A stretch of DNA of 64,000 bases from a virus, in the IMG/VR virus record IMGVR_UViG_3300036987_000083, positions 96,001 through 160,000 of that record. One strand, 5' to 3'. Position 1 is the stretch's first letter. Every line of letters starts with the position of its first letter. The translations under genes were made by a program, and so were the position numbers. This document shows, one piece after another, positions 1,130 through 57,943 of the stretch. The notes beneath the pieces were generated by a model, which saw only the letters and a list, made by a program, of their open reading frames with translations, searched no databases and was not told where the DNA came from.

Positions 1130-2524
1130 ATGCATCGGACGATGAAGAACACTTTTGAGGGCAAAACCTTTTACGAGTCTGCATTCGAGCCGACGAGGGG
1201 TGTGCTTGTTCGCGAGGTTGAGGACCGACCACATGGTCGCCTTAGCTACGGCGCGGGGTTGTCTGAGTGGCTCTCAGAAGAGCTGCCTTGGCCGGAGCGG
1301 CATGCTTTCCAAGAGCGCTGGCGGGCTAAGTTTGGCCATCGAAGCCTTCCTTTTTCACCCTCTCCAGAAACTGTGGATATTTCTATCACGGATTGGTGCG
1401 CATTTGGCTGCTCGTACTGCTACCAGGACAGCACCGCAAAGCAGGCGCACGCACCCAAGGACCTCGTAGACAAAGTCATCCACAGCTTTGATTACAAGCC
1501 CTACCAGGTGGCAATCGGTGGTGGGGAGCCTACGGCTCATCCGGATTTCCCTGAGATTCTTCTGAATGCGCGGCAAGCTGGCGTAGTGCCTAACTACACT
1601 ACGGCAGGCAACGTCATTCGGCCTGAAGTCATTGAGGCCACCAATGAGGCTTGCGGTGGGGTCGCGATGACCTATCACTCGTGGAAGGGGTTGCATTGGT
1701 TTGAGGAGCACTACGTGAAGCTTCGTAAGCTGCTCAAGGTGCAGCTCAATGTCCACCTCATTGCGGACAAGGATGTCGCCACCAACTTGGAGGCGCTAAC
1801 TGCCCTTCAGAGGGCAGTGGGCAGGCTAAATGTCGTGATGCTCGCCTATTACCCTGATGTCGGCCGAGGCACGTTGCACAACATCATGCCTAAGGCTGTC
1901 TACGCGGGTAGTCTGCCTCTTGCTATTACCTCTGCCGTTGCAAGCGGCATGACCCTGGCGTTTTCAGAAGGCCTTCTGCCTTACTTCTTGTCTCGTCCTG
2001 AACTTGGAGTAGAGACGCGTTTTGCCTCCAAGGCGGAGGGGCTTTTCTCTGCATATGTTGATCCCCGAGGGCGACTTAGTTCTAGTAGCTTCGACCCTCC
2101 TCCCAAGCCCGTAAATCTCGACGCTACCGAGAAATTCGTGCCCGAGTACGAAGAAGACACTCCCGAGGCGCGACAGACTAGCGCGGAGCAGGAGCTGGCA
2201 CTGTACCCAACGGTTTGGGAAGGTCGTCTGCAGGACCAGTGGGATCGCAAACGTGGGTGGGATTCTCAACCCCGAGGCGCTACGTGTTATAGCTGCAGGC
2301 TCAGTGGTTCCTGCGCTACTCCCAGTGTACACCACTATTTTGCTTGCGCGTTTGCAACACACAACGGGAAGCAAGCACCCTTGAGTGCCGAAGCACAGCA
2401 GCGACTAAACGAGCAAAAGCTCTATGAGGAGATAGCCGAGCAGGAAAAACAGCTTGGTCGGCAGTTAACCCCGGAGGAGTACGTTCCTTACACTGAGCGT
2501 TTCAAGGCGATTCGAGGGCTCTGA
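1130..2524 (+). CDS. radical SAM protein with Cys-rich (SPASM/twitch-like) C-terminal region
   Basis: CxxxCxxC motif (WCAFGCSYC), GGEP motif (GGGEPT), C-terminal CYSCRLSGSC. Confidence 0.85.
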   Translation: MHRTMKNTFEGKTFYESAFEPTRGVLVREVEDRPHGRLSYGAGLSEWLSEELPWPERHAFQERWRAKFGHRSLPFSPSPETVDISITDWCAFGCSYCYQDSTAKQAHAPKDLVDKVIHSFDYKPYQVAIGGGEPTAHPDFPEILLNARQAGVVPNYTTAGNVIRPEVIEATNEACGGVAMTYHSWKGLHWFEEHYVKLRKLLKVQLNVHLIADKDVATNLEALTALQRAVGRLNVVMLAYYPDVGRGTLHNIMPKAVYAGSLPLAITSAVASGMTLAFSEGLLPYFLSRPELGVETRFASKAEGLFSAYVDPRGRLSSSSFDPPPKPVNLDATEKFVPEYEEDTPEARQTSAEQELALYPTVWEGRLQDQWDRKRGWDSQPRGATCYSCRLSGSCATPSVHHYFACAFATHNGKQAPLSAEAQQRLNEQKLYEEIAEQEKQLGRQLTPEEYVPYTERFKAIRGL

Positions 2525-2620
2525 TTCGATAGTTGCCGCCCCGAGGCAGCACCCTCAAGGGGACACCAAGTAGCTAGTGCAACAGAGCTTAAAATACAGT
2601 AACTCAGGAGGCTGTTAACC

Positions 2621-3010
2621 GTGCGTCGCTTAATCATTAACGTGGGTTTCATTACGAATAGCTCCTCGGCCGTACACTGGTTTCCTAAGGAGCTTCTTGA
2701 TGTTCCAGAGGTGCGGGCGTTCATGGCCGCTTACGGGTTGTCTGGCGGTACTACGGGAAGTGACCTTTGGGACCGAAGCAGGTGCGACAGCGTGGCGCTC
2801 ACTGAGGCACAGAAGCACGAGGTGCGTACACAGCTAAGTAGCGCCGAGTACAGTGGGGGTATTGGCGAGTCCATTGACCCGAAGGATGCCAGCACGTTTG
2901 TTGTTATTTATGGAGATGAATACGAGTCTGTCACCTCTGAACTGGCCGCGCTTCTCTCTCGAATTTGCGCTGAGAGGGGCCTCTCCCAAGAGCGGAGTGA
3001 GTTCAACTAG
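2621..3010 (+). CDS. hypothetical protein with N-terminal F-x-TNSSS motif
   Basis: GFITNSSS; CAGGAGG RBS at 2606-2612. Confidence 0.7.
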   Translation: MRRLIINVGFITNSSSAVHWFPKELLDVPEVRAFMAAYGLSGGTTGSDLWDRSRCDSVALTEAQKHEVRTQLSSAEYSGGIGESIDPKDASTFVVIYGDEYESVTSELAALLSRICAERGLSQERSEFN

Positions 3011-3128
3011 TCGTGCAAACTAACTCGCCCGGGATGCTCCCTCTCAAGGGCCACGTGAAGGCTGTATTGCGGTCGGCATCACTGACTCTGGCAAGCTGCT
3101 ACCCCTTCTCCGAAGGGTACTTCACGGA

Positions 3129-3476
3129 ATGTCGCACTCCTGCAGGAAGCCTATGACCTACGACCCCAAGAAGCCAAATCGTACCCCAACAGGACGAATC
3201 TATTCGGAGCCTCGTTTTCGAGAGTTCCCGATGCGTACTGAGTTCGGTAGGAAGTCTCGGGAAATACTGGACCCCAAAAAAGACTATTGCTTCATTGAAG
3301 CCGACTACTCCGCTGTGGAATTTCGAGTTTACAGCCTTCTGTCCGCCGAAGAGCGCAAATCCCTTTGGTGTTGCGATGTTTATCCCCGAAGAGAATTCAG
3401 TATTCGCGGCATCCCTGGCGAATATGCCCAAGTTGTGGGTCCGGTAATCAACAGCAAAGAAGAGCCACTTAAATGA
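3129..3476 (+). CDS. small protein containing an isolated family-A DNA polymerase motif A-like segment
   Basis: YCFIEADYSAVEFRV resembles PolA motif A (DYSQIELR); no other polymerase motifs present. Confidence 0.5.
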   Translation: MSHSCRKPMTYDPKKPNRTPTGRIYSEPRFREFPMRTEFGRKSREILDPKKDYCFIEADYSAVEFRVYSLLSAEERKSLWCCDVYPRREFSIRGIPGEYAQVVGPVINSKEEPLK

Positions 3477-3757
3477 AACTTGCAGATTTGAAAGTCGACG
3501 ACAACCAGTATGGGTCTATCGACCTGTCCAAGCTCCTCGGTAAGAAGATTCTTCGTGTTGAGGGGCACATCTCCCGGGAGTTTGGAAGGGATGCCATGGT
3601 TTTCCAGTTACATGCCCTTGTGTTGGAGGACGGGGTCAAGCTGTTTGTGGAAGGGGAGCATGACACTGCCTACCTTCCCAGCCTGCGAACCGTTCCTGGC
3701 TTGGAAAACGAGACGCTCTGTGCGCTGTACGAAGAGGGGTTGGTGCAGGGCGCCTAG
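3473..3757 (+). CDS. hypothetical protein
   Basis: ATG overlaps the upstream stop; ORF track. Confidence 0.6.
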   Translation: MKLADLKVDDNQYGSIDLSKLLGKKILRVEGHISREFGRDAMVFQLHALVLEDGVKLFVEGEHDTAYLPSLRTVPGLENETLCALYEEGLVQGA

Positions 3758-4094
3758 GCCTGCCAGAGTCCCATAACTAGTGGGTACCCTGGGCGAGGTT
3801 TTGGATTTCCAGCTCCGGTTACTGGTGAATTAGTACGTGGAAGAACCTCCCCAACGTGCTGGAAGAACTATCGTAGCGAAGGGTCCGCGTTCACAACCTG
3901 CAAAAACGCTCTCAGAATTTTGAGGCGACACCGCCCGGAAGCCTGTTCGACTCCATAAAATGGAAGAAGTGTTTAGGCAGCAACTACGTGTAGTTGCTGC
4001 CTGTTTTTGTTTCCATCCCCGAAAATGGAAGCCCTTACTTGCTCCTTCCATTTCTTAAGTGCTAGATTGCCCTGACATTTCTGTCGGGGACTCT

Positions 4095-8486
<4,392 letters not shown>

Positions 8487-9023: not shown

Positions 9024-9773
9024 ATGAATAACTCAGAAAATAACAAGGGCCCCGCTCGTCCGGTAAGTCGTGAGCCTCGGTTTACTAAGATTCGCGCGCT
9101 TAACTGCTTCGAAGAAGTGCACCAGCGCATTTTGGACGGGCAAGGCTCTACGGCTATAGCCAAGTACATCCAGGAGGAGGAGGGAGAGTACTTAGAGGCG
9201 ACCAGAGAGTCCGTGGTATCCGCACTCAACTACTACCGGTCGTCTTTGCCCCCCGGGGAATTAGTAGCCAAACAGCTACCGGGTGAGTTCAAAAATGCGG
9301 TAAAAAAACTCAATAAGGCAGTAGATGAGGTAAAGGAGCTGGAGTGGTTGACTCGGTTCCAAAAGCGGCGTTTGAGGCTGGATGGCGCAGTAGAGACGAA
9401 CATCAAGAAGCTCCTGCCAACGATGACTCAGGAGGTACGTGCACACGTGGAAGTACTTCGAACGCTGGCTAGCGTGAAAATGGATTTGGGGCTGAACAAA
9501 CGGCACTTGGGCTCTCTTGAGGTGGACGCTACCTTGGTTGCGGATGTAGTTGGGCGCTACGGCAGTTCCAATGTTGCCAAGGTGCTTCAAAGCGCAGAGT
9601 CTCGTCAAAAGGTGATGGGTGTTGCCGAGCGGTTCTTGGCGCTCGCGCAGCGAGAGATGAATGACAAAGACGCGGCGGAAGCCCCTGCTGACGTAGTAGT
9701 AGATGCGGTGCCTCCCGCACCCCTCGCGCCTACAGACGCTACAGCGCTAGATTTGGATCCTAAGGATGATTGA
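9024..9773 (+). CDS. putative terminase small subunit
   Basis: Overlaps the start of the large terminase; helical, with an HTH-like N-terminal region; assigned by position. Confidence 0.55.
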   Translation: MNNSENNKGPARPVSREPRFTKIRALNCFEEVHQRILDGQGSTAIAKYIQEEEGEYLEATRESVVSALNYYRSSLPPGELVAKQLPGEFKNAVKKLNKAVDEVKELEWLTRFQKRRLRLDGAVETNIKKLLPTMTQEVRAHVEVLRTLASVKMDLGLNKRHLGSLEVDATLVADVVGRYGSSNVAKVLQSAESRQKVMGVAERFLALAQREMNDKDAAEAPADVVVDAVPPAPLAPTDATALDLDPKDD

Positions 9774-12700
9774 AATCACAGGGGGAAGAGCCAAGTCCCA
9801 ACGTACAAGGGAAGAGTTGGAGGCAATGCTTAAGCGAGAGATGTCCTCGCTTACTCCGGATGAAAAAGAGGCGTTGGAAATTATCATTCAGGAGCTGTCT
9901 AAGCCTCAGCAGGGCCCCACGCTTCTCGATACTCTTACGAAAGTGGAGTACAAGCGTACTCCCGTGAGTATGGAGCAGTTCGTCAAGGATCCCTACTACC
10001 TTGGCAACACCTGCGAAAACATCTACCCGGTACTGATGAAAGACTTGGAGGACTTGTTCTCCGGTGGGTACCATGAGGCTGTTTGGACTGGCTGCATTGA
10101 CCTTGACTCCCTTGTCCAAGGAGCCAACGGCTCGCTTCGCACGATTCGGGATTGGATTGGTACTACGGGAGAAGTTATTGGGTTCTCGCCCGAAGGGTCC
10201 AAGGCCGCGAAGACGGGTATCGCCAAGCACTCCGGCATTCAGCCGACGATGCGTCTTACACTGGCGAACGGCATGGCGCAAAGGCTCACACCCAACCATC
10301 AGGTGATGGCTTGGCGAGACGGGTATGCTTGGGTCCGCACCGAAGACCTAGAGCCGGGCGACTTCCTTGTTGTCCCTCGCCAACTCAATACGACGCCAGA
10401 CTCGAACCTTTCTGTGAACGAGGCGAAGCTGCTGGCGTATTGGACCACCGACGGGTCCTCTTCCGAGCAACGTTCTCGATTTACCGATGGAAACTCGGCA
10501 ACCACGGAGGAGGTGGTTGCCCTGCTGGAGAGCCTCGGCTACGCCGGAACTCGAACGCAAATTTCGCCCAAGTGTTGGGAGGTCTATGTCAACGAGCACA
10601 AACGCTCTGGGTTCCTAGAGTGGCTGCGCACCCATGAGGGCCACTATAAGACCAAGGAGGTACTCGTTCCGGATTCTGTTTGCCGGGCGAAGCTTCCTGT
10701 CGTCGCAGCCTTTCTTAACCGAGTCTGGGCTGCCGAGGGTTGCGTTTACATCCACGAAGAGGTTTCCCCTCCTCGTTTTACGCTCGGCATGACTTCTGAG
10801 CGTTACATTCGCCAAGTACAACTGCTACTGCTGCGCTTCGGAGTGATGAGCCGAGTCGTGTTCACCCCTCAGTACGATAAGCGCTCCGGTAAGACCACCG
10901 AAACCTGGCTGCTTACTGTTTCGGGAGTAGGGCCGCTCAAAAAGTTTCTTCAGGTGACTGGGCCAATTTTGGGCAAGGAATCCAAATGCGCGCAAGTGGC
11001 TGCTTATTGTGAGTCGCGCTCCGAGAACACGAACGTGGACGTGCTCCCGATTGAACGCAAATGGCTCAGTCGACAGATGACCCTCGGGGGCATCCAACGC
11101 CCCGCAGGTTCGACTTGGTGGTGTTTAGCCCAAGGCACCGGCAAGCACCTGTCTCGCCAGATGTTCGATAAGTGGCTTGCCGAATACGGCAACACTGCGC
11201 TCGGCGCTCAGCTACGGAGACAGTTTCCAGCAGAGTTCGCGTTCGAGCGTATCGTTACTCTAGAGGACGCGGGCGAGACTGAGGTTGGAGACATCTGTGA
11301 CGTTGAGGGCATTACCAGTTTCGTCTCAAATGGCATTTACGCTCACAATAGTATCGGATACGGCAAGACGCACGTCGCTACTATTGGGGTGTGCCGTGTT
11401 CTTTACGAGCTGTCCTGCATGACGAATCCTCACAAGAGCTACGGCCTTGCGAACGGATCCAACCTTTCAATCGTCTGCATGTCAGTTAACGAAACCTTGG
11501 CGGTGAAGGTCGTCTTCGAAGCAATCGCGTCCAAGATTAAGGACTCGCCCTACTTTGAGGAGCACTTTCCATTCGAGGATACAAAGAAGGAAATGCGCTT
11601 CCCGGGTGGAATCTGGATTGCTGCCCGTGCGTCTACGGATACCTCCGCTCTTGGACTTAACGCCATCGGAGCCCTGATGGACGAGCAGAACTTCCTTGCG
11701 CGAACCGCAAAGGAAGCTCAGATGGGCATCGTCGACAGAGCCGAGACTATCTACAACACCATCCAGCGCCGTATGAAGTCCCGCTTCGAACGTCATGGCA
11801 AGTTGCCAGGTATGCTCTTCATTGTTTCTTCGAAGAAGACAATGGATGACTTCACCGCTAGGCGAATCCGAGATTCTAAAGATGACCCAACTGTCTTTGT
11901 TCGGGATTACGCCCTTTGGGACACAAAGCCAGAAGACCAGTATTCCAAGGAGCGCTTCTGGGTTCTTTGCGGCAACGACACTGTACCTTCGAAAGTACTC
12001 ACCGACGCAGAGTACGCTAAGTTCAAAGACAATGTACCGGAAAACGCCACGTTAATTGCGGCCCCTGAAGACTTTCGTAAAGATTTCGAACGAGATCTTG
12101 AGGGGTGCTTGACTGGGGACACTAAAATACCGCTGCTAGACGGTTCGGAAATTCCTATCGCAGAACTAGTAGGCCGAGAAGAGTTCTGGACGTACTCTTA
12201 CGGTCCTGATGGCCGATTTTACCCGGGGCGAGGCCACTCGGCTCGACTCACGCGTAGCGACGCACCCATCGTAGAAGTGCTCCTTGATAACGGTGAGCGC
12301 ATCCGCTGTACGCCCAATCACCGGTTTATGCTGCGAGACGGAACTTATGCAGAAGCCCGAGAGCTACATCCGGGTACGTCACTGATGCCGTGCTATCGTA
12401 GGCGTGATCGCCACGGCTACGAGCTGCTAAAGTCAAATGTTGGCGGCAAATGGGTGCACACACATCGGCTGGTGGCCTTGGAGTCTCAAGGCGTACCACT
12501 GAAGACATCGACCGTGGTGCATCACCGAAACTTCAGGGAGGGGGACAATACTCCTTCTAATCTTCAGGAGATGACAGTGGAGGACCACACCGCTTTGCAT
12601 GCGGCACGTGTTCACCTTACCATACACAGCCCCGAGGCTAGAACCAAGGCCGCTGCGACTCGAAGCAGGCTCGCGGCAATTCCTGGACCGTTTCGGGATA

Positions 12701-14259
12701 ACTTGCTAACGCAACTTCGTAAAGCTCGTGCTTTGTACGCGGGCTCTGCTGCAAATAAGGCGCAGGGGCAGAAGTCCGGACTTACCTACGGATTTGGTCG
12801 GGCAGTTCGTACCGACGCACAGAAGCGCGTCCAGTCCCTTAATGGCACCAAGAACATTACGAAGCTGAACTTTGAGGACAACCCTTCGAAGCGCTCGCAC
12901 AACCGTCAGGCCTCCCGCACTCGACTAAAGCAGATGAGTGTAGCGGACCGGAAGAACGCGACCATGCGCGGGTTACACGCTCGTTGGCACAAAGGCCCAT
13001 ATGAGGTTTGCTCTATTTGTTCAGGCGTGCAGACTCCAGCCTACCGGCTGCAAAAACAACTTGGCAGCACCAGTGTAGCTGGTAGCTACGGTTGTCATAT
13101 TCGCTGGAAACACGAAGGAGAGTTTGAGGTTTGTCATAGGTGTCGTTCCGACTACAACCACAAAGTCGTGTCTGTCACGCCTGCGGGTCACGCCGATGTC
13201 TATGACATCACTGTGGACACTCAACACAACTTCGCACTCACTGGAGGGGTGGTTGTTCACAATAGCATTCGAGACCTAGCTGGAGTGGCGACCGTCGCGA
13301 TTAATCCCTTTATCCAGCGTCGTGAGAAGCTACAGGAGTGCGTGGACCACACGAGGACCCATCCTTTTTCTGCACTTGTGTATGATCCCTCCAAGCCTGG
13401 TAACTTTATTTGGTCCAAGATGGTTAAGGAGTCCTCGGAGCGAGGGTTCACGGGGAGCCCGCATGAGTCCTCTCTCATGCTTCGTCCCATCCTTAACCCT
13501 AGAACCCCGAGACACATTCACATTGACCCCTCACTCCGAGGAGACGCCACGGGATTTGTCATGGCGCATATCGGGGGCTGGACCGACGTAGTGCGGCGTT
13601 CAGATGACAAGAAAGAGTACCTGGAGCGGGCTCCAATCTACATCGTGGATTTGATGCTGCGGATTGTACCGCCGACCGGCGGTGAAATCGTACTAGGAGA
13701 GCTACGGCACCTGGTTTATGACCTTTCCGCGCACGGTTACATGATTACGGGTGTCACTTTAGACAGTTGGCAGAGTGCAGATACCATCCAGCAGCTTAAT
13801 CAACGAGGCTTTCAATCAAAAGTGCTGTCTGTAGACGTAACTACCGACCCCTATGAGAATTTGAAGACAGCCCTGTACGAGAATCGAGTGTCCTACTACG
13901 AGTACACTCCTGTGATTGAAGAACTACAGCAGCTAGAGCGAAAGTTCGACGGTCGCAGGACCAAGATTGACCACCCTCCCAAGGGCAAAAAAGATGTTGC
14001 TGATGCTTTGGCTGCGGCATTGTTCGCGCTATCTACCACCGGAGTTGCACAACCGCTTCCATTCATGAAGAGCGTGTCCTACACTGGCGACGCTTGGATG
14101 GAGGAGCAGCAGCAGTCGGCTCTTGCGGGTCACAAAGCTTCGGTTGCAAACACTGATCTTCCCGCTTTCTTTAGGGGAGATGGAAGTGATAAAGGCAACG
14201 GAGGGGGTTGGGGGAGTGGTGGTGGCGGTTGGGGGAGTGGTGACGGTGGCTGGGGCTAA
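9766..14259 (+). CDS. terL: terminase large subunit (T4 gp17-like) with two inteins
   Basis: Spliced Walker A TG|SIGYGKT; Walker B ALMDEQN; nuclease motifs HIDPSL, TLDSWQS, KDVADALAA. Confidence 0.92.
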   Translation: MIEITGGRAKSQRTREELEAMLKREMSSLTPDEKEALEIIIQELSKPQQGPTLLDTLTKVEYKRTPVSMEQFVKDPYYLGNTCENIYPVLMKDLEDLFSGGYHEAVWTGCIDLDSLVQGANGSLRTIRDWIGTTGEVIGFSPEGSKAAKTGIAKHSGIQPTMRLTLANGMAQRLTPNHQVMAWRDGYAWVRTEDLEPGDFLVVPRQLNTTPDSNLSVNEAKLLAYWTTDGSSSEQRSRFTDGNSATTEEVVALLESLGYAGTRTQISPKCWEVYVNEHKRSGFLEWLRTHEGHYKTKEVLVPDSVCRAKLPVVAAFLNRVWAAEGCVYIHEEVSPPRFTLGMTSERYIRQVQLLLLRFGVMSRVVFTPQYDKRSGKTTETWLLTVSGVGPLKKFLQVTGPILGKESKCAQVAAYCESRSENTNVDVLPIERKWLSRQMTLGGIQRPAGSTWWCLAQGTGKHLSRQMFDKWLAEYGNTALGAQLRRQFPAEFAFERIVTLEDAGETEVGDICDVEGITSFVSNGIYAHNSIGYGKTHVATIGVCRVLYELSCMTNPHKSYGLANGSNLSIVCMSVNETLAVKVVFEAIASKIKDSPYFEEHFPFEDTKKEMRFPGGIWIAARASTDTSALGLNAIGALMDEQNFLARTAKEAQMGIVDRAETIYNTIQRRMKSRFERHGKLPGMLFIVSSKKTMDDFTARRIRDSKDDPTVFVRDYALWDTKPEDQYSKERFWVLCGNDTVPSKVLTDAEYAKFKDNVPENATLIAAPEDFRKDFERDLEGCLTGDTKIPLLDGSEIPIAELVGREEFWTYSYGPDGRFYPGRGHSARLTRSDAPIVEVLLDNGERIRCTPNHRFMLRDGTYAEARELHPGTSLMPCYRRRDRHGYELLKSNVGGKWVHTHRLVALESQGVPLKTSTVVHHRNFREGDNTPSNLQEMTVEDHTALHAARVHLTIHSPEARTKAAATRSRLAAIPGPFRDNLLTQLRKARALYAGSAANKAQGQKSGLTYGFGRAVRTDAQKRVQSLNGTKNITKLNFEDNPSKRSHNRQASRTRLKQMSVADRKNATMRGLHARWHKGPYEVCSICSGVQTPAYRLQKQLGSTSVAGSYGCHIRWKHEGEFEVCHRCRSDYNHKVVSVTPAGHADVYDITVDTQHNFALTGGVVVHNSIRDLAGVATVAINPFIQRREKLQECVDHTRTHPFSALVYDPSKPGNFIWSKMVKESSERGFTGSPHESSLMLRPILNPRTPRHIHIDPSLRGDATGFVMAHIGGWTDVVRRSDDKKEYLERAPIYIVDLMLRIVPPTGGEIVLGELRHLVYDLSAHGYMITGVTLDSWQSADTIQQLNQRGFQSKVLSVDVTTDPYENLKTALYENRVSYYEYTPVIEELQQLERKFDGRRTKIDHPPKGKKDVADALAAALFALSTTGVAQPLPFMKSVSYTGDAWMEEQQQSALAGHKASVANTDLPAFFRGDGSDKGNGGGWGSGGGGWGSGDGGWG
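10093..11349 (+). mobile_element. intein 1 (419 aa) with LAGLIDADG homing endonuclease, inserted in Walker A
   Basis: C1 (CIDLDS) to AHN|S; blocks LLAYWTTDGS and FLNRVWAAEG. Confidence 0.9.
12106..13263 (+). mobile_element. intein 2 (386 aa) with HNH endonuclease
   Basis: CLTGDT to VHN|S; THRLVA...VVHHRNFREGDNTPSNL...H. Confidence 0.9.
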
Positions 14260-14299
14260 AATTGGCGGAACGACCATGTGGTCGGCAATGTAAGGGCCT

Positions 14300-16586: not shown

Positions 16587-17601
16587 CGTGATTTTCAGTC
16601 AATACCTTGACAGCCTAGCTGACACACCTGTAGATTTCACTCCGCCCGTAACAAGGAGTAATACCCCCGTGCCTACTCACTTTGTCCCAACGGAAGAAAT
16701 TCAGAAACTGACTGTTGGCAGCTACGAGCACCTCGCGTCCAAGTTGGATGAGGCTCTTTCCCGGGACGCTGCAAAGATTTTTGGGGATTCAATCCCGAAC
16801 AAGATTGAACGCATTGGAACCTTCGCGGAGCATGTGCTTGTTGCCGCTGATGACGGGCGCTTCCTGAAGGTGCGGTACGAGCGCGCAACTGGTGGTACCA
16901 TTAAGTTGGTGGGCTCGGAACCTCTCGAAGTTCAACTATACAACGAGTCCAATTTGGGTAGCTACCTTGAGAAAGAGGCGAGGACCATCGTGGAGTCCTT
17001 GCTGGCTCATGACGTCCCCCAGGCGGAGTTAAAGCTCCGGGCGTTAGTGCCTTTCGTAGAAGAGGCGGCGCCACTTACGGACGAGCAGGTGGTCGCGTCA
17101 GCCGTCGAGAGTATGCGGGCCGAGAGGCCGTGGAAACGGTTGTATCGCGAGCGGGCTGAGCAGGTTAAAGACTTCCTCGGGGAACAGCTCAAGGGGATTG
17201 AAGCACGAAAACTCCCACCCAAGTTTGCTAAGCTGAGCGACGGGCAAGTCCCGGAGGCCCAGCATGAGGGCTACAAGGAGCTGGTTCACGACGACTTGGT
17301 CTATATGGCAGAGGCGCTCAAGGGCTGGTTCCAATCCTTGGAATCGATTGAGCGTCTTAAGGCTGTAGACACCGCGAACGAGGAAGAACGTGCTGTGAAG
17401 ACAACTTTCTTGGCGTTTGCAGAGGACTTGCGCCAAGATATTCAAAACGTACGAGACTCCGTATTGGAGTCCCTTAATCTCGTCGGTTCTGTGGCACAGC
17501 TCGGAGTACTGTACGATGCTTTGGTCGAAGAAGCCTTCCATTATGAAGTTGCAAGCTGCTTTGCCTCGACGATGATTACGGAACTTCACGGTTCTAAGTA
17601 A
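16558..17601 (+). CDS. hypothetical head-module protein (GTG 16588 is a likely alternative start)
   Basis: Long ORF between portal and prohead core genes. Confidence 0.7.
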   Translation: MSAQSEAASDVIFSQYLDSLADTPVDFTPPVTRSNTPVPTHFVPTEEIQKLTVGSYEHLASKLDEALSRDAAKIFGDSIPNKIERIGTFAEHVLVAADDGRFLKVRYERATGGTIKLVGSEPLEVQLYNESNLGSYLEKEARTIVESLLAHDVPQAELKLRALVPFVEEAAPLTDEQVVASAVESMRAERPWKRLYRERAEQVKDFLGEQLKGIEARKLPPKFAKLSDGQVPEAQHEGYKELVHDDLVYMAEALKGWFQSLESIERLKAVDTANEEERAVKTTFLAFAEDLRQDIQNVRDSVLESLNLVGSVAQLGVLYDALVEEAFHYEVASCFASTMITELHGSK

Positions 17602-21887: not shown

Positions 21888-21921
21888 CCGGACCCTAGTA
21901 CTCAGCAACTAGCTATGGTAC

Positions 21922-21965
21922 GACTCGGCCCGTCAACCATTTCGGTTGGCGGGCCGAGGTCTTTT
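21922..21965 (+). terminator. intrinsic terminator after the major capsid gene
   Basis: CTCGGCCCGTCAACC/GGTTGGCGGGCCGAG stem followed by TTTT. Confidence 0.8.
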
Positions 21966-22906
21966 ATGGGCACTCAACACGCGAAGAAGCGCAAGTACAC
22001 GACTCCCGAAGAGCAGGTGGCTTTGGTGGCCGAATACCAAGATGGGGCGACCCAAACTGCGCTTGCCGAGAAGTACGGGATTACTCAAAACGCGGTCAGC
22101 AAGCTGCTGCAGCGCCTGGGCGTGAAGGCTCGCACTCAGACCGAGGCACAACCACCGACATTCGATGTGGCGGAGGCAGCGCGGCTTTGGGCGGAAGAGA
22201 AGCGCACTACCTACGAGATTGCGACACTGCTCGGGGTGTCTCAGTCGGTAGTGGGGTCACACCTGCTGCGTGCGGGCATCTCCAAGAGCAAGGGACGGGG
22301 CCAGCGCTATCGCCATTTTGACCGAGAGTTCTTCACGAAGGTCACGCACGAGTCTGCGTATTTTGCGGGGTTCGTTGCGGCCGACGGATGTGTCCATGGG
22401 GAGAACGACACCGTGTCCTTCGGGCTGCACCCGAACGACCGTGTCGTGCTGGAGAACTTGAGGGCGGCGGCAAAGCTGGAGCAGCCGATTACCGAGCGGA
22501 ACAACAACTTCGGCAAGCCCTATGTCTGGATGAGTGTGACTTCCCAGAGTGGGTTGAGTCCCTGGAGCGTATCTATAAAATTACGCCCAAGAAGTCCTTG
22601 ACGCTCCAGCCGCCAACCGAGCTGGGCTGGGAGTACGTGTGGTCCTATGTTCGGGGCTACTTTGATGGTGACGGCCATGCGACGAAAGATGGGAAGGGCG
22701 TGCAGATTACTTGCGGGTCATTGCCCTTTATTACTTGGGTTATTCTGGACCTGTTTCGTTCGCACCACAAGATATACGAGCACCCCAAGTACGAGCGCGC
22801 TGACGGTACATCGGCACCCACGTATGGCTGCTACGTATCGGAGAAAACCCGTCTGAAGTACCGAGAGAAGAAAGTCGCAGCCGCGCAGAAGGAACCGCTG
22901 GGCTAG
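21966..22906 (+). pseudogene. frameshifted LAGLIDADG homing endonuclease with N-terminal HTH repeats
   Basis: YFAGFVAADG in one frame and YVRGYFDGDG in the -1 frame; frames join near the CCC at 22543-22545. Confidence 0.75.
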
Positions 22907-23688: not shown

Positions 23689-23722
23689 CTAGCGACCATA
23701 TGGTCGCGCTGAGAGGACGAGG

Positions 23723-33350: not shown

Positions 33351-33428
33351 GTTCGAGCTGGGATTCTGTCGGGCAAGCGACCACATGGGCGCAACCCACC
33401 GGGGTTGCTGCTGAAACGGTTTTCGCTT

Positions 33429-35335: not shown

Positions 35336-35364
35336 CTGCAGTAAACGACCACATGGTCGCGTCT

Positions 35365-37929: not shown

Positions 37930-38534
37930 GTGACATCCTTCTTCCGGCTCTTGTGCTGGCTGCCCCTGCGGCGCCTGCAACTACCGTAGCCTCTGTGGCC
38001 CCGGTAGCCCCTGCAGCCCCTGTGACTACTGCGGACCCTTTGACGCCGCTTTACGCGCTAGTAGGCAGCTTGGTGCTCCTGCAGCTCATCAAGTCCGGAT
38101 TCGCATTCGTGAGGTGGCTGGGGGCGAGAACTGTCGCGAACGAGGACAAGGATAAAGCGGAAGTCCGGCGGCAGATTGAGGAGCAAAAGTTGGAGATGCG
38201 CAAGCAGAAAGAAGAACACGAAGCTCGGTTTGAAGAAATCGACAGGACCGTTTCAGCTATTGACCGCGCGATGGGCACGGTTCAGCTAGAGATGAAGCAA
38301 GTGCTCTCAACGGTAGAGTCAACCCGAGGGATGGTTGTTGAAATCAAGGGCTCGATGGACAACCGGTTCGAAAAGCAATCAGATTTCTACCGAGGCCAGA
38401 TTAAAGAGCTGTTGGTCGGTGTGGACAAGCGCCTGGAGGACTTGGAATATGCGCTACGGCAAGATATGTCCAGGGCCATCCACGACTCGGCGATGATGAG
38501 CAAGACCGCCAGCGCGAAGCGCCAAAAGTCATAA
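37926..38534 (+). CDS. single-TM coiled-coil membrane protein (possibly holin-like)
   Basis: LYALVGSLVLLQLIKSGFAFVRWLG followed by coiled coil. Confidence 0.6.
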   Translation: MSDILLPALVLAAPAAPATTVASVAPVAPAAPVTTADPLTPLYALVGSLVLLQLIKSGFAFVRWLGARTVANEDKDKAEVRRQIEEQKLEMRKQKEEHEARFEEIDRTVSAIDRAMGTVQLEMKQVLSTVESTRGMVVEIKGSMDNRFEKQSDFYRGQIKELLVGVDKRLEDLEYALRQDMSRAIHDSAMMSKTASAKRQKS

Positions 38535-38885
38535 CCAAGCCAAAGCCATCCGGATGTCTGCGATGCTTGGCGGCTTAGCAATGACCATCTGAATCACCCG
38601 ACTTCTGAGTGCGTCTTTAATCGTGTACTCTTGGGGTGCTGCGGTGATGAGGACGCGGCGCACTTCGGGCCGATTTTGTTGCCAGACCGTCAACACGTCG
38701 ATGCCGTCAAGCTTGGGCATCATCAAGTCCGTCAGGACTGCGACGATGTCGGCATCCTGTTGGTACTTGGTTGCCGCCGCCATGGAGTCCAGCTCCAAAA
38801 TAGACTCAAATCCGCAGAAGTCTACGACTTCGCTGATTAGGCGGGCGACCGAAGCGTCATCATCGATGCAAAGCACTCGTTTCAT
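38529..38885 (-). CDS. stand-alone CheY-like response regulator receiver domain
   Basis: VLCIDDD, LTDLMMPKLDG (phospho-acceptor Asp), LIT, AKP. Confidence 0.9.
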   Translation of the reverse strand: MKRVLCIDDDASVARLISEVVDFCGFESILELDSMAAATKYQQDADIVAVLTDLMMPKLDGIDVLTVWQQNRPEVRRVLITAAPQEYTIKDALRSRVIQMVIAKPPSIADIRMALAWL

Positions 38886-38911
38886 ACCCGTAGTTTGCCT
38901 CAAGAAGCTCT

Positions 38912-38983
38912 GACGAGATAGCCAAGCGGAAAGGCAAGGGGCTGCAAACCCCTCATGCGTGGGTTCAATCCCCACTCTCGTCT
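38912..38983 (+). tRNA. trnC: tRNA-Cys(GCA)
   Basis: AGGGG-CTGCAAA-CCCCT. Confidence 0.9.
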
Positions 38984-39038
38984 TCACTCTTTCAGGAGGT
39001 CGTTATGCGAATAGATACCTAACAAGGAGCTATTCACC

Positions 39039-49069: not shown

Positions 49070-49153
49070 GTCTTTCCGCTCCGATGTCAGGGTTTCGAAG
49101 ATAGTAACGACCACATGGTCGGACGCAGCACGCAGCACTTCTAAGGACGCCGT

Positions 49154-49774
49154 ATGAAACCGTACCCTTCGATTCCCCGGGCGACCGGTCGAAGCTTTCA
49201 CGAAATTCCCAACGCGTACATCTTCGACAAGCTCGATGGTCGTAACATCCGAGTAGAGTGGTCGAGGAGGAACGGCTGGGGCAAGTGGGGTACACGGCAC
49301 CGTCTGTTCGATGCCACGGATGCTGAGTTTGCTCCGGCAATTCCGCTCTTTGAGCAGGTCTACGCGGAGCCCATGACAAAGATTGCCAGAGACAACCGCT
49401 GGGAGAGCGTGACGGCATTTCTAGAGTTGTGGCAACCGAACAGTCTCGGGGGTGTTTGGGTTCCAGGAGAGCCGTACACGCTTACGCTGTTCGACGTGGC
49501 ACCCTTCAAGCAGTGCCAGATGGCCCCGAAAGAGTTCATAGCGACCTTCAAGGGTGTCCCTACAGCGGCATTCTTGGGGCAGGCCAATTGGACCCGAGGC
49601 TACGTAGAGCGAGTGCGCTCAGGTCAAGTTGAAGGGGTAACTTTTGAGGGTGTCGTGGCGAAGGCAGGCGAGAAGCACAAGCTGGTGCTGTCGAAAGCGA
49701 AGCAGCAACGGTGGGTAGACGCGCTGAAGGCCAGGTATGGCGAGCAGGAAGGCAAGAGGCTTGCCGAGTCGTAG
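49154..49774 (+). CDS. ATP-dependent RNA ligase (compact, Rnl2-like adenylation domain)
   Basis: Motif I DKLDGRN, ELW, FDV, FEGVVAK, KAK; located in the tRNA array. Confidence 0.75.
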   Translation: MKPYPSIPRATGRSFHEIPNAYIFDKLDGRNIRVEWSRRNGWGKWGTRHRLFDATDAEFAPAIPLFEQVYAEPMTKIARDNRWESVTAFLELWQPNSLGGVWVPGEPYTLTLFDVAPFKQCQMAPKEFIATFKGVPTAAFLGQANWTRGYVERVRSGQVEGVTFEGVVAKAGEKHKLVLSKAKQQRWVDALKARYGEQEGKRLAES

Positions 49775-50047: not shown

Positions 50048-50076
50048 TTGACAATCGCAACACTACCGACTAGTAT
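50048..50076 (+). promoter_or_regulatory. sigma70-type promoter
   Basis: TTGACA-17-TAGTAT. Confidence 0.8.
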
Positions 50077-50181
50077 GCCTCTCAGTTCTCGGGAGGTGTG
50101 CCACGTTGCTTAGCTACTCCACGGCCTTGGAAGTACGGACCTCTTGTCAGGGCTTTGGGCACCTCTTCGTCGGCGGACGCT

Positions 50182-51444: not shown

Positions 51445-51569
51445 AGGTCTTCATTCTCTTCGATGAAGAGTTCCCGGCATCCCCGATTGTCTGTATCTAC
51501 TCGACGCTAGAGAAAGCCCAGAAGGCTGCAGCGGTGGCCAAGAGACTTTGGACGAGGAGGGTGAAGTGA
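51441..51569 (+). CDS. small hypothetical protein
   Basis: ATG overlaps the upstream stop. Confidence 0.4.
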   Translation: MKVFILFDEEFPASPIVCIYSTLEKAQKAAAVAKRLWTRRVK

Positions 51570-51621
51570 CCGAGCCTACGTATCGTGCTATTCCGCCTAA
51601 AAACATGAAAGAAGAACCAGA

Positions 51622-53393: not shown

Positions 53394-54497
53394 ATGTGGC
53401 ATTGGCCCCTGGGGGAAATTTGCTCGCCCCTCCCGGCACTCGGGGAGCCCGGGGCGTTTGGGACCAAACGCTTGCATGACACCCATACGGGCGTAGACCT
53501 CTACTGTGACCTCGGCACGGAGGTGTTTGCGGTCGAGGGAGGTAAGGTTGTCTCTGTCGAACGGTTTACTGGGGATGCTGCTGGCAGTCCTTGGTGGCTA
53601 GAGACTTGGGCTGTGCTGGTGGAGGGTGCCTCGGGTGTGGTGGTTTATGGGGAGCTTGAAAAACCTTCTGTCGCTGAAGGCGACCACGTGGTCGCTGGCG
53701 CGCGAGTCGGTAAGGTGGCCCGCGTACTCATTAAGGATAAGGGTCGTCCGATGAGCATGCTGCATTTGGAGTTATACGCCGCAGGTACTACAAGAACGAA
53801 GTGGTGGAGATACGAACGACCCGCAGACTTGGTTGATCCCACCCCTTATTTGCTGGAGGCAGAAATGGGAACAGAGCGGCGTAGCTGTACCACCAGTAAC
53901 TACGACAGTCTGTACGCTCGTTGGCTGGAGAAGCCTGGAGCGCTGCTGGACTGGGGCGGGTATAACCCTGCCAAGCATAACCTGTTGGATCTTTGTGGAG
54001 GTACTGGAGCAGTTTCGCTCGCAGCCCGCACGCGTGGGGGTACTGCAACACTTTTGGACTTACGTCCTCGTTGCCCGGATGAAGAGGTGATTCCCATCCA
54101 AGGTCGTGCTGAGAACCTAAACCTGCTCGCTAGTGGGCGTACTTGGAACTTCGTGGTGTGTAGACAATCTCTTGGGTATTTGAACCTGCCAAGGGTCGCG
54201 CAAACGCTCTACGGGGCCACTACGCCCGGGGCACTTTTCGTCTGCAACAACTTCCAAAAACCTAAGTGGTCACTTCGACCCTACCTGTACCGGGGCAAGT
54301 GGTACGTGGAGGCGTCAGGGTACTTGGGCAAGAAGGTGTTCCACCTGCAGGCTACGGGAGATGACTACGACATTACTACCTTCCGCTGGCACACCCCCGA
54401 AGAGGTCCAGGAAGCGTTCTCTACCGCAGGCTGGATGCTGGTACGACAGGAGCTGGGGGAAAAGTCCGCAAAATTCTGCTTCCAGCGGAAACCCTAG
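53394..54497 (+). CDS. M23-family peptidase domain fused in frame to a SAM-dependent methyltransferase
   Basis: HTGVDL, LHLE; LLDLCGGTG; internal GGAGG-N5-ATG at 53855-53867. Confidence 0.7.
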   Translation: MWHWPLGEICSPLPALGEPGAFGTKRLHDTHTGVDLYCDLGTEVFAVEGGKVVSVERFTGDAAGSPWWLETWAVLVEGASGVVVYGELEKPSVAEGDHVVAGARVGKVARVLIKDKGRPMSMLHLELYAAGTTRTKWWRYERPADLVDPTPYLLEAEMGTERRSCTTSNYDSLYARWLEKPGALLDWGGYNPAKHNLLDLCGGTGAVSLAARTRGGTATLLDLRPRCPDEEVIPIQGRAENLNLLASGRTWNFVVCRQSLGYLNLPRVAQTLYGATTPGALFVCNNFQKPKWSLRPYLYRGKWYVEASGYLGKKVFHLQATGDDYDITTFRWHTPEEVQEAFSTAGWMLVRQELGEKSAKFCFQRKP

Positions 54498-54501
54498 CGA
54501 C

Positions 54502-54530
54502 TTGACACCCGGGCTGTCGTAGTATAGTAT
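54502..54530 (+). promoter_or_regulatory. sigma70-type promoter
   Basis: TTGACA-17-TAGTAT. Confidence 0.8.
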
Positions 54531-54558
54531 GAGCTTCGTAGCCTGGAAGCTCTTGTAA

Positions 54559-54633
54559 GGCCTCTTAGCTCAATAGGCAGAGCGTGAACAGTAATGACGT
54601 TCAAGGTAATCGGTTCGAATCCGATAGAGGTCG
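54559..54633 (+). tRNA. isolated tRNA-like gene with a 9-nt anticodon loop (central AAT)
   Basis: Canonical acceptor, D and T arms; TGAAC-AGTAATGAC-GTTCA. Confidence 0.7.
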
Positions 54634-54647
54634 TCAGAGGTGACATC

Positions 54648-55292
54648 ATGGGAGCAAAGTCGGGAGGGAAGGAACTGCCGCGCGCAGAGCGGGGTCGAGC
54701 GGCCAACTACGGAGTGGCTCTTCCGCCCAGCGAGATGCTGCGGCTTATGCGCCATGGCGGCGCTGCTCCCACTGTAGAGGAGGTAGAAGCCCAAGGCCAG
54801 CGGGAGCTGATTGCGGCTAACGGTGCCTCGCTTCCCATCAAGGGGAGTGACAACCCTGTATTTGTCCGAATGGGCTTTGTTTTTGGCCTTCCGTTGGACA
54901 AGTTCTTCCGGGAAGCTAAAATGCCGATGGGGTGGAAGATACAGCCCAGTAATGAGCACGTGATGCGCAGCGATATCTTGGACTCCAAGGGTCGACGACG
55001 CGTGAGGGTCCACTACAGGGCGCTGCTTACCGCTCGAATGGCTCGCATGGAGCCTACGGTCCGGTATACTGCCGAAATAGAGTACCAAGGCGAGTTCGGT
55101 AGGCCGGGGGAGTCCAACCGGGGGTTTGTTTTTGATCACTCAACCCGAACCGAGGTGTTCTCTACTAAGACCCTGCGGCGAGAAGGGCTCGACCGTAAGT
55201 TTCTGCGCATCGAGGACTTGCGAGCGGAGACGAGCGCATGGCTCGCTACGCACTTTCCAGAGCACCAGAATCCAGAAGCTTACTGGGATTAG
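54648..55292 (+). CDS. hypothetical protein
   Basis: GAGGTG RBS before ATG 54648. Confidence 0.65.
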   Translation: MGAKSGGKELPRAERGRAANYGVALPPSEMLRLMRHGGAAPTVEEVEAQGQRELIAANGASLPIKGSDNPVFVRMGFVFGLPLDKFFREAKMPMGWKIQPSNEHVMRSDILDSKGRRRVRVHYRALLTARMARMEPTVRYTAEIEYQGEFGRPGESNRGFVFDHSTRTEVFSTKTLRREGLDRKFLRIEDLRAETSAWLATHFPEHQNPEAYWD

Positions 55293-55350
55293 CTCCAGCT
55301 AGCTCGGACGGGGCTGGCAGTTTCGCCATCCGTGGGGTACACTTCGTGGA

Positions 55351-55995
55351 ATGGCACGGTTAGCATTTACAGACTACCTCCAATCCTTCCCATTTTGGAT
55401 GATGGATGTCGGGATAGTTGGCGGGTTGCCAGTTTTTAATCCTGTGCTGGGGTTTGCGTCCATAACCTCACCAGAGATAACCATCGAGCAGTACCCAATT
55501 CGGCAGGCAAACTGGTATTTTGACAGAAATGTCGTGCACCGGGCCAGCATAAGCCCGTATACGGTACGTCGTGGGGTAACTTTCTACGATTCGGATTTCT
55601 GGAAATGGTCCATGGCTGCGCTCTCTGGGGGTACGGCCTACACGACGTTCGGCTCTTCCTATCGTCGAAGCTTCGTACTCATCCATTTCTTTGCGAGAAA
55701 TCCACTTGAGGGCCTGGGAGTCCCGAAGGGTCCTTTGGTCGGGGCAAAGCTTAACTTTGGTCCATTTGAATTCGCGCTTCGTGTTCCAGCGAGGGCCTAC
55801 TTGCTGAAGGGCTGCATCCCCGCCAGGTGGAAGAGCGGCAACGACTTCGACGCTATGGACGGTTCGGTGTCTATTGCCGAACTGGACTTTACCTGCGAAG
55901 GTGTGGAGGAAGTCAGCTTGGGAGGGGCGGCTTCGGCAGCCGTCGGGCTATTAACGGGTGCTGCGCAACCTGTAATATCTTCCGCAATAGGGTAG
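55351..55995 (+). CDS. second gp19-family (tail tube / baseplate initiator-like) protein
   Basis: GFASITSPEI...Y.., TVRRGVT..DSDFW.W, W.SGNDFDA...VSIAELDFTCE. Confidence 0.75.
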   Translation: MARLAFTDYLQSFPFWMMDVGIVGGLPVFNPVLGFASITSPEITIEQYPIRQANWYFDRNVVHRASISPYTVRRGVTFYDSDFWKWSMAALSGGTAYTTFGSSYRRSFVLIHFFARNPLEGLGVPKGPLVGAKLNFGPFEFALRVPARAYLLKGCIPARWKSGNDFDAMDGSVSIAELDFTCEGVEEVSLGGAASAAVGLLTGAAQPVISSAIG

Positions 55996-56006
55996 GAGTA
56001 GGGAGA

Positions 56007-56246
56007 ATGCGAAAAAAACAACGTGAATGGGAAACCCTAGATGTCGCATCCTTGTTAGGAATTGAGCTTCCTGAGGAGGCCGGACAAGCGGGTGTTACGA
56101 CTACCGCTAATGTAGGGGCCTATCCTGTGCCTATCGGCCCGGTTCTTCGGCGACAGATGCTCACCAGGGGCGTTAATGGGGGGCAACTGCAAGACATCCC
56201 CTCTGCATACCGCGAGCTACTGGGGCTCAAAAAAAAGAAAAGGTAA
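56007..56246 (+). CDS. small hypothetical protein
   Basis: GGGAG RBS. Confidence 0.55.
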   Translation: MRKKQREWETLDVASLLGIELPEEAGQAGVTTTANVGAYPVPIGPVLRRQMLTRGVNGGQLQDIPSAYRELLGLKKKKR

Positions 56247-56290
56247 CAAGGGTATTGACCGGTACTTAAGCTCTGATGTATGCAGTAGGC

Positions 56291-56863
56291 ATGACAGACT
56301 TGAACGGGGAAATAGAGACGCTTCCTCAGGGCACTCTGGAAGACAAACGCTCGTGGGAGCAAAGAGTTCGAGAAGCCGCCAAGGACCGTTGCTCCAATTG
56401 TGGCGGGAATGACCGTACTCGGGTTGGCATGATTGTGCCTTCGGGGGCCGGGGGACAGACTGTGACCTCCAATGGGGTGTTGCTTTGTCGCCCCTGTGAG
56501 CTGGCCTCGGAGTCACTAGGCACCGGAAAACGCCGTGAGCAAAGTCGGCGTCTTCTTAACTTCTGGGTCAGCCGGTCGTTTTACGACAGGATTCAGCACA
56601 GCATCGAGGGCCAGAATGGCTTTCACAGCGTAAGTGCCTTGGTGCGGTACTTGATGTCGAAATACATCGTAGACGAAGCACGATTTGACGACTTGGAGCG
56701 GCATCAGGACTCGGGTGCCGACGTCAAAATAAACGTTTGGGTGGATGTGGATGCCTACACCACTTTCAGGCAGCTCGTGGATGCCCGAGGCCTGACTGTT
56801 ACTGACGCAGTGAAGAGTCTAATTCTCGTCTATCAAGAGACTATGGCGGAGCTTACCTCATAG
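56291..56863 (+). CDS. degenerate HNH/Zn-finger fused to ribbon-helix-helix-like domains (putative regulator)
   Basis: CSNC...GMIVP..GG....N..LLCRPCE; LLNFWVSRSFYDRI and KINVWVDVDAYTTF. Confidence 0.6.
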   Translation: MTDLNGEIETLPQGTLEDKRSWEQRVREAAKDRCSNCGGNDRTRVGMIVPSGAGGQTVTSNGVLLCRPCELASESLGTGKRREQSRRLLNFWVSRSFYDRIQHSIEGQNGFHSVSALVRYLMSKYIVDEARFDDLERHQDSGADVKINVWVDVDAYTTFRQLVDARGLTVTDAVKSLILVYQETMAELTS

Positions 56864-56891
56864 TCTTGAAGCTTTTCCAAAGGAGTGCACA

Positions 56892-57671
56892 ATGACGGTT
56901 GAAATGGCGAGCATCGGTGCGTTAGAGACCCCGAAGTCTACGCTGGGTGTTTTCGAGTTACCATGCGGGTATGTGGATGCGACTGGAGCGCTTCACACGG
57001 AAGTTGCCCTGCGCGAGCTGACGGGTGCCGAAGAGGACTTGCTGGCAAGCAAGCAGCTCAATGCCTTTAAGAAGTACAATGAGCTTTTGGTTCGTTGTAC
57101 TCAACGCATTGGCACTATTACTGACCGAGGACAGATCGCTGCTGCTGTTAAGGGTCTACCTGTCGGAGACCGCTTGTTTCTGCTTTTTGCTATTCGTCGT
57201 GTTTCCATTGGGGACGAGTATCTTTTCGAGGAGACGTGCCCAAACACCGCGTGTAAGCATAAAGGCAATTTCTCCGTAGCGCTATCTGAGCTGAAGGTGA
57301 AGAAGATGCCAGAGCCGCATAAGCGCATTTATGACGCGGTGTTGCCCTCCGGGGCCACAGCGCGTTTTCGCGTCAGCACTGGCTTAGATGAAGAGAAAGC
57401 TATGGCTTCTGAAGCAAAAACAGAAGAGTCCCAGCTCTCTAAGGGCATTCTCATGCGCTTGGAGTTGCTAAACGGTGCGCCACCTGAGTTGCAGGCTGTG
57501 AGGGAGATGCGGTGGCGGGATCGCGTCGCGCTACGGGCGCAGTGGGATGCGGTAGAGGGTGGAGTTGACACCGAAACTGACATGAGTTGTCCGAACTGCG
57601 GCCATGAGTACAAGAAAGACATCGAAGTGACTCCAAGTTTTTTCTTCCCTTCGGCGACATCGAAAATCTAG
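56892..57671 (+). CDS. tail / baseplate assembly chaperone (gp26-like); -1 frameshift product extends to 57817
   Basis: LRELTG.EED.L, GDR.FLL..IR..S.G, CP..C, CPNCG; slippery TTTTTTC at 57638-57644. Confidence 0.8.
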   Translation: MTVEMASIGALETPKSTLGVFELPCGYVDATGALHTEVALRELTGAEEDLLASKQLNAFKKYNELLVRCTQRIGTITDRGQIAAAVKGLPVGDRLFLLFAIRRVSIGDEYLFEETCPNTACKHKGNFSVALSELKVKKMPEPHKRIYDAVLPSGATARFRVSTGLDEEKAMASEAKTEESQLSKGILMRLELLNGAPPELQAVREMRWRDRVALRAQWDAVEGGVDTETDMSCPNCGHEYKKDIEVTPSFFFPSATSKI

Positions 57672-57943
57672 AGAGCGATCTCTTTTACCTTATGGAGGCC
57701 TGGCATTTAGACTGGGCCGCTGTTATGGCGATGCCGTCGTCAGTCAGATACCGAATCATGCTTAAGAAAATAGAGCTGGAGAAAAAGAAGCAAGATTACG
57801 CTAATCGTCCAAGGTAGCGACCACGTGGTCGTCCACTTTAGTTGACGCAATTGCGGGAGCAGTTGTAGGCTCTAGGGGCAGTACGCAGAACCTGTCCACC
57901 AAACGGTCTAAGTCCGATAAAACGCTAACCCCAGGAGTACACC

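Follow-up and report, generated by a model that had tools for sequence, protein, structure and literature searches.

A Dispersed Palindrome at Gene-Unit Borders of an Uncultured T4-Like Phage and Its Lineage-Specific Forms

The Phage Genome and the Copies of the Palindrome

The 64,000-nucleotide stretch analyzed here (the window) corresponds to positions 96001-160000 in one virus record of 179,489 bp (IMGVR_UViG_3300036987_000083, 57.6% G+C) and carries dispersed copies of a 14-bp palindrome, CGACCAYRTGGTCG, which is the subject of this report. The source record is an uncultured T4-like myophage. A T4-type portal, a prohead protease, the gp23 capsid protein, the sheath and the gp19 tube protein are encoded in it, and its completeness was estimated by CheckV at 88%. 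Genes run leftward over genome positions 1-85 kb and rightward past that, and the window alone holds 42 tRNA genes. The INPHARED phage collection gave no DNA match, and the capsid protein (tblastn) retrieved distant matches only.

A sequence-only reading of the window had reported eight exact copies of the palindrome with a pyrimidine-purine (YR) step at every centre, six of them intergenic and two coding, in a number well beyond chance. All of these points were reproduced. The eight copies match CGACCAYRTGGTCG exactly at the positions given below, their centres are CA, TG, TA, CA, CG, CA, CG and CG in coordinate order, and the two coding copies lie at 1226, in the radical-SAM open reading frame (ORF) 1130-2524, and at 53681, in ORF 53394-54497. 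None of 100 dinucleotide-preserving shuffles of the window matched CGACCAYRTGGTCG. The same reading had warned of overlooked copies, and one real degenerate copy at 33378 (CGACCACATGGGCG) had indeed been missed; it surfaced when up to two mismatches were allowed, the remaining extra matches being probable chance. The other one-mismatch match in the window, at 17082, is coding with a GG centre and is probably a chance match too. The sites of the window, together with the promoter next to the last one, are as follows (no strand is assigned to the palindromes):

1226..1239, palindrome, centre CA, 96 nt past the start codon of the radical-SAM ORF, where its in-frame translation is R-P-H-G-R
14271..14284, palindrome, centre TG, in the gap that follows the intein-bearing large terminase gene, with 11 nt between it and that gene's stop and 15 nt between it and the following ATG; syntenic in G005
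23693..23706, palindrome, centre TA, between the head-gene block and a gene for a small acidic protein, the ATG of which follows after 16 nt; syntenic counterparts in L001, G005 and G007, and other palindromes at this junction in other lineages
33378..33391, one-mismatch copy CGACCACATGGGCG, preceded by a terminator and followed after 45 nt by a TTGACA promoter; the corresponding place in a close relative holds a perfect copy
35346..35359, palindrome, centre CA, 10 nt past tRNA-Gly(tcc); syntenic in the L001 contig
43089..43102, palindrome, centre CG, 16 nt before tRNA-Ala(tgc)
49108..49121, palindrome, centre CA, intergenic; the ATG of ORF 49154-49774 follows after 32 nt
53681..53694, palindrome, centre CG, within ORF 53394-54497
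57818..57831, palindrome, centre CG, immediately past a TAG stop; syntenic counterparts at G011:5866 and G008:28303
57842..57871, plus strand, sigma-70-like promoter TTGACG-N18-TAGGCT, beginning 10 nt downstream of the 57818 copy

Across the whole genome, the word (G)CGACCA-YR-TGGTCG(C) occurs in 31 exact and 14 one-mismatch copies, where a first-order Markov model predicts 0.03 and 0.7, respectively, and 30 of the exact copies have YR at the centre. When sites are oriented along transcription, the true unit extends to 16 bp, with G at -1 in 22/31 and C at +1 in 24/31, and there is an additional A at -2 in 22/31, on the upstream side only. Either a need for a flexible step or transitions from an ancestral CG could account for the YR centre. 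The palindrome is a real, selected and conserved feature of the phage.

Placement at the Borders of Gene Units

Thirty-five of the 45 sites are non-coding in a genome that is 21% non-coding (P = 5e-16), a fraction that rests on our own crude gene calls. In 24/45 sites, a stop triplet (TAAG, TGAG, TAG or TAA) lies immediately next to the palindrome on its sense-upstream side, compared to five on the other side and 3.3 for random intergenic points, with only about eight of these triplets being the stop of an ORF accepted by the gene caller. Furthermore, 12/45 sites have a sense -35 within 30 nt downstream (2.3 expected; 12 was reached in 0 of 1000 simulations), and these promoter-adjacent sites lie 3-24 nt upstream of a TTGACA -35 box. 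The earlier statement that the palindrome is not tied to the TTGACA promoters stands, therefore, for the window and fails for the genome.

Several layouts recur. In the first one, found mainly in the cassette array at 64-85 kb, a stop codon is followed by the palindrome and, 0-4 nt further on, by an intrinsic terminator; about nine sites lie at this distance from a terminator stem and are therefore transcribed. In the second one, the palindrome stands past a terminator and ahead of a TTGACA promoter, as in about seven sites located between a terminator and the following -35. In the third one, the palindrome is followed after 16-19 nt by a GAAAACTCC box and then by the promoter. Late operons show the order stop, palindrome, Shine-Dalgarno sequence and ATG (14271 and 23693 in the window), other copies adjoin tRNA genes (35346 and 43089), and two or three copies fall within coding sequence. 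The palindrome overlaps neither -35 nor -10 boxes, and no T-run follows it, separate hairpin-plus-T-run terminators being located 0-4 nt downstream or 26-67 nt upstream.

These placements bear on the interpretation put forward in the sequence-only reading, namely that the palindrome organizes, partitions, condenses or packages the genome, like parS/ParB, matS/MatP, NBS/Noc or SBS/SlmA, with no role in transcription. Those sites are palindromes of 12-16 bp, dispersed in tens of copies and read by dimers, and matS, NBS and SBS come close to our palindrome in size, symmetry and copy number. With the parS consensus only the central CACGTG is common, while the arms differ. The lack of a fixed geometry to promoters, the presence of sites in late operons and in coding sequence, and a spacing more even than that of random intergenic placement (coefficient of variation 0.83 vs. 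1.35) would all suit an organizing role. However, unlike such sites, the palindrome is tied to gene-unit borders, with a significant association with stop codons and promoters, and its density differs threefold between the arms (0.39/kb in the early arm vs. 0.13/kb in the late arm), fitting the count of gene units better than it fits DNA length. Moreover, ParB_N (PF02195) had no match at E ≤ 0.1 in a six-frame search of the genome, whereas no search for MatP or SlmA was made, and the ORF at 62318, proposed earlier as ParB-like, gave no ParB match and encodes 768 aa with a Zeta-toxin-like kinase domain. The parS/matS-type interpretation is not upheld by these results, and we consider a purely organizing role quite unlikely.

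Two further repeated elements were noted in this genome. The first comprises about 100 nearly identical sigma-70-like promoters that read cTTGACAacggcag-N-gTATAAg (for instance at window 1095-1132 and 50048-50100, and throughout the left arm), and the palindrome stands near only about 15 of them. In many of these promoters the ATG comes just 6-8 nt past the -10 box, which suggests leaderless mRNAs. The second element is a dispersed word, GAAAACTCC(C)-N10-TTCCAC, with 43 copies in both orientations, located at genome 27-85 kb plus one at window 17207; it often occupies the same intergenic gap as the palindrome, at a near-constant 16-19 nt from it.

Conservation Among Relatives and Change of the Word

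A search of IMG/VR with the capsid protein led to 12 related loci, and a motif scan of the same database to eight contigs, besides the source record, with at least two copies of the same word; the phage under study is designated G000 in these comparisons. The copies per contig are:

G005, 3 copies
L001 contig, 3 copies
G006, 10 copies
G007, 7 copies
G008, 3 copies
G009, 5 copies
G010, 3 copies
G011, 9 copies

All eight contigs have genes in common with this T4-like clade and their capsid protein, where present, is 68-92% identical. Many sites in the relatives lie 13-20 nt before a start codon. Synteny study placed window 14271 at G005:13786, window 23693 at L001:8105, G005:25937 and G007:62059, window 33378 and 35346 at two copies of the L001 contig, and window 57818 at G011:5866 and G008:28303. 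At these junctions the flanks diverge and the centre drifts within YR, while the word persists, also inside core late operons across deep divergence; judging from such alignments, the retention of the word despite divergent flanks is taken as purifying selection. For the two coding copies (1226 and 53681), a search for relatives of either gene found none.

Other branches of the clade lack the CGACCA word and have different palindromes. CCGCCCGTACGGGCGG occurs in G001, G002, G003 and G015 (13, 8, 7 and 2 copies, respectively); it is often extended to 20-24 bp and is also established after stop codons, in one case just past the terminase gene. The junction composed of the capsid stop, a terminator, the palindrome, a Shine-Dalgarno sequence and the ATG of the small acidic protein bears different words by lineage:

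G000, G005, L001 and G007, CGACCA-YR-TGGTCG (class A)
G004 and G016, GGACCG-YR-CGGTCC (class B)
G017, GACCG-CG-CGGTC, the same core as class B with other outer bases
G018, GACCACGTGGTC

In the capsid-protein tree the CGACCA class is distributed over three deep lineages, while the GGACCG class forms one tight group that includes G018. A single function served by a changing word points to a reader that would co-evolve with its site. Genome G001 (L018-L026) has, beside its palindrome, further repeated words of its own, such as GAAATTCCGAGAC and GATCCGAGCATC, in 12-20 copies, which parallel the multi-word spacers of G000.

If the palindrome were instead the operator of a host transcription factor co-opted by the phage, different palindromes would mean different hosts. 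This would account for a word common to phages that share few genes, and for the lack of a binder among the phage proteins searched; the Gram-positive SOS box, CGAAC-N4-GTTCG, is a 14-bp box of similar layout. On the other hand, every examined contig with at least two copies belongs to this single phage clade. A scan of 185,579 bacterial species genomes returned, among the matches listed, only scattered single hits in unrelated GC-rich taxa, which is what chance predicts. The sites do not overlap -35 or -10 boxes and a direct six-frame search for LexA_DNA_bind found nothing in the phage, so that a LexA-type reading was also rejected. A host operator is in our view very unlikely.

A second alternative is that the palindrome is a recombination or endonuclease site, defining swappable gene cassettes with an exchange point after each stop, as PeSL elements or integron attC sites do. 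The early arm is indeed an array of small genes ordered as stop, palindrome, terminator and promoter, the phage has many homing endonucleases, and at the 23693 junction G000 and G005 have a conserved gene downstream but different genes upstream. Likewise, PeSL elements mediate shuffling in T4-type phages (PMC4122927), and recombination between the repeats of Cluster O mycobacteriophages produced indels (PMC4351075). Against this, neither Phage_integrase nor Resolvase nor Y1_Tnp was among the Pfam matches listed for about 280 ORFs, the sites are kept in core late operons over deep divergence, and no palindromes flank the single indel observed among near relatives, which consists of a homing-endonuclease remnant located past the capsid gene. 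A word of 14-16 bp is also very short for homologous exchange. We consider cassette exchange improbable. REP/RAYT elements combine a Y1 (RAYT) transposase gene with imperfect palindromes that have a 5' GTAG; here, Y1_Tnp was absent from the Pfam matches listed, and GTAR precedes only eight copies.

Double-Stranded DNA or RNA

The palindrome could alternatively act as an RNA hairpin in transcripts, stabilizing 3' ends, marking processing sites or modulating the termination or initiation of translation. Its position right after stop codons (24/45 sites abut a sense-side stop triplet) and just before Shine-Dalgarno sequences, the distance of 13-20 nt to the start codon of many sites in relatives, the transcription of the nine or so sites that precede a terminator stem and the many translation and RNA-repair genes of the phage are compatible with such a role, and the 16-mer would fold as RNA into a GC-rich stem of 6 bp with a tetraloop (-10.6 kcal/mol).

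The variation among copies points in the other direction. Thirteen of the 14 one-mismatch copies change one and the same half-site position, the 14th being the probable chance match at 17082, and 11 of the 14 read CGTCCA instead of CGACCA. The change is always in one half only, and the recurrent variant creates an A.A or T.T mismatch in the middle of the stem that would halve the folding energy to -5.2 kcal/mol; the compensated form CGTCCA..TGGACG occurs 0 times, there is no compensatory stem variation in the 45 copies, and no wobble pair appears among the variants. Uncompensated variants that break the stem favor a reading as double-stranded DNA. The symmetry of the word leads to the same preference, since all positions are palindromic in all classes, including the pair next to the 2-nt centre, which is A..T in class A and G..C in class B and is unable to pair in a hairpin. 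In addition, the centre lacks an orientation bias, CA and TG both being seen in sense orientation (13 to 7), and the seven or so sites located past a terminator and upstream of the next -35 also favor DNA over RNA. Taken together, these points favor a symmetric dimer reading double-stranded DNA, and we regard a hairpin function as unlikely.

Proposed Function and Known Systems

The sequence-only reading had proposed a genome-wide site for a dimeric protein, and this part of it agrees with our results: the motif is genome-wide, it is under selection and it has the symmetry expected for a dimer, from which we infer protein binding. With moderate confidence, and from sequence comparison, we interpret the palindrome as a putative docking site on double-stranded DNA for a dimeric protein, positioned at the borders of gene units and acting on transcription. 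The excess of copies and the sharpness of the word, as counted above, speak in favor of this interpretation. The palindrome would be recognized by a symmetric and highly sequence-specific protein, probably encoded by the phage and co-evolving with its site. The sites would mark the borders of expression units, and the likeliest action on transcription would be one independent of exact geometry, in which the protein, once bound, prevents transcription from running on into the next unit. At sites that adjoin a -35 box, the protein may also occupy the upstream edge of the early promoter.

Several observations weigh against a transcriptional docking site. There is no classical operator geometry, since the distance to the promoter varies (3-24 nt, about 50 nt, or no promoter at all) and sites stand variously before terminators, after terminators, in late operons and in coding sequence. 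The spacing of the sites is more even than under random intergenic placement, a point that would also suit the organizing role discussed above. No binder was found, as Pfam over about 280 ORFs gave only weak helix-turn-helix (HTH) matches; given that the record is about 88% complete, its gene may sit in the missing part. Finally, the authors who described the Cluster O repeat judged a transcriptional role unlikely for it (PMC4351075).

That repeat is nevertheless the closest published analogue. It is a 17-bp dyad of Cluster O mycobacteriophages, TGTTCGG-NNN-CCGAACA, with 34 invariant copies and three one-position variants, and its function was left open by its authors (PMC4351075). Both repeats exceed 30 invariant copies per genome with a few one-position variants, have a variable centre without orientation bias, fall mostly in short intergenic gaps or near the 5' ends of genes and partly in coding sequence, keep their positions among relatives and are near promoters in a minority of cases. 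For our palindrome the corresponding values are 12 fixed bases in 31 exact copies, 35/45 non-coding sites and synteny in L001, G005, G007, G008 and G011. The two differ in their carriers, a Mycobacterium siphovirus and an uncultured T4-like myovirus, and in their centres, 3 bp in Cluster O and a 2-bp YR step here. Furthermore, a significant association with stop codons, terminators and -35 boxes, as well as altered versions of the word in related lineages, set the present palindrome apart. We take it to be an element of the same kind as the Cluster O repeat.

As to its action, the palindrome would resemble, by analogy, the stoperators of Cluster A mycobacteriophages, where the bound repressor (L5 gp71-type) stops the elongating RNA polymerase whatever the promoter geometry, and where the specificities of site and repressor co-evolve between lineages (PMC9283540). 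Both systems consist of dozens of near-identical short sites in small intergenic gaps of both arms. In contrast to stoperators, which are asymmetric, 13 bp long, oriented along transcription and read by a monomeric repressor in a temperate phage, the palindrome is symmetric, shows CA and TG centres in a ratio of 13 to 7, and belongs to a phage that looks lytic. A cognate repressor of the stoperator type was sought by Pfam in the same ORFs of the incomplete record, with weak HTH matches only.

PeSL (promoter-early stem-loop) cassettes offer a further comparison (PMC4122927; PMC2839356), as they also occupy a T4-type early arm of small genes, with repeated junctions of terminator and sigma-70 promoter and with lineage-specific words. 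The stem-loop of PeSL is, however, the terminator itself and is variable, whereas the palindrome is an extra invariant word without a U-tract, next to a separate terminator, and is also present in core late operons and coding sequence.

The three pairs CGACCA/TGGTCG, GGACCG/CGGTCC and CCGCCC/GGGCGG can be cited for a switch of specificity between lineages. By analogy with the immunity groups of temperate phages, it is possible, if doubtful, that this lytic T4-like clade maintains a network of one protein and one palindrome at gene-unit borders whose specificity switches by lineage; such a network might then serve self-recognition or competition between co-infecting relatives, besides the control of read-through. 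Invariant dispersed palindromes at gene borders recur in unrelated phages, such as those of Cluster O, with no proven function yet, and the present clade constitutes a natural experiment, having three related palindromes at one junction and a fourth, unrelated one elsewhere in the clade. Given complete genomes, a binder that co-varies with the word could be picked out by phylogenetic profiling, the function of such repeats would then become directly testable, and orthogonal protein-operator pairs could be a possible yield.

Candidate Binders and Other Genes

None of the binders proposed in the sequence-only reading withstood examination. The ORF at 62318, whose kinase domain was mentioned above, spans genome 158318-160624 in the tail/baseplate region, and the domain is a C-terminal Zeta-toxin-like P-loop kinase (E = 1e-28). 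The ORF at 56276, described as a ribbon-helix-helix or dead-HNH protein, has no Pfam match and lies among tail and baseplate genes. The third one, a 1475-aa ORF at 4059 described as a winged HTH candidate, gave no DNA-binding match in Pfam or when its sequence was searched against the PDB; class-A relatives have this ORF and G001 lacks it, a correlation that is not specific. ParB and LexA were, like the recombinases and transposase named earlier, absent among the Pfam families listed.

Additional candidates were also rejected. The 228-aa HTH protein after the capsid gene (window 21915-22598) is a truncated two-motif LAGLIDADG homing endonuclease and, as such, not a symmetric binder. It contains two or three HTH units but, of the LAGLIDADG motifs, just the first; full-length relatives occupy the same place in G001, G006 and G011, and from this comparison it looks like a decayed homing endonuclease. 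The small acidic protein whose gene comes immediately after the junction palindrome is coiled-coil-like and not a DNA binder, and none of the genes behind the palindrome-plus-promoter pairs belongs to a DNA-binding family. The sole lead, and a weak one, is a tandem-HTH protein of 162 aa (genome 17309-17794), whose operon follows a variant site and a promoter and which has two homologues only, on short contigs.

Other genes were noted during annotation. The large terminase ORF (window 9766-14259) encodes 1497 aa with intein splicing, LAGLIDADG and HNH domains, and a TnpB-like (Cas12f1-like TNB) ORF is also present in the phage. A stand-alone response-regulator receiver domain protein of 152 aa is located in the tRNA region at window 38532-38987, on the opposite (minus) strand. 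Finally, the left arm and genome 160-179 kb harbor a large set of RNA-repair and translation genes, comprising RtcB, an RNA ligase, a 2'-5' ligase, HAD_SAK_2, cREC_REC, an RF-1 domain protein, a PrmA-like methyltransferase and Cpn10.

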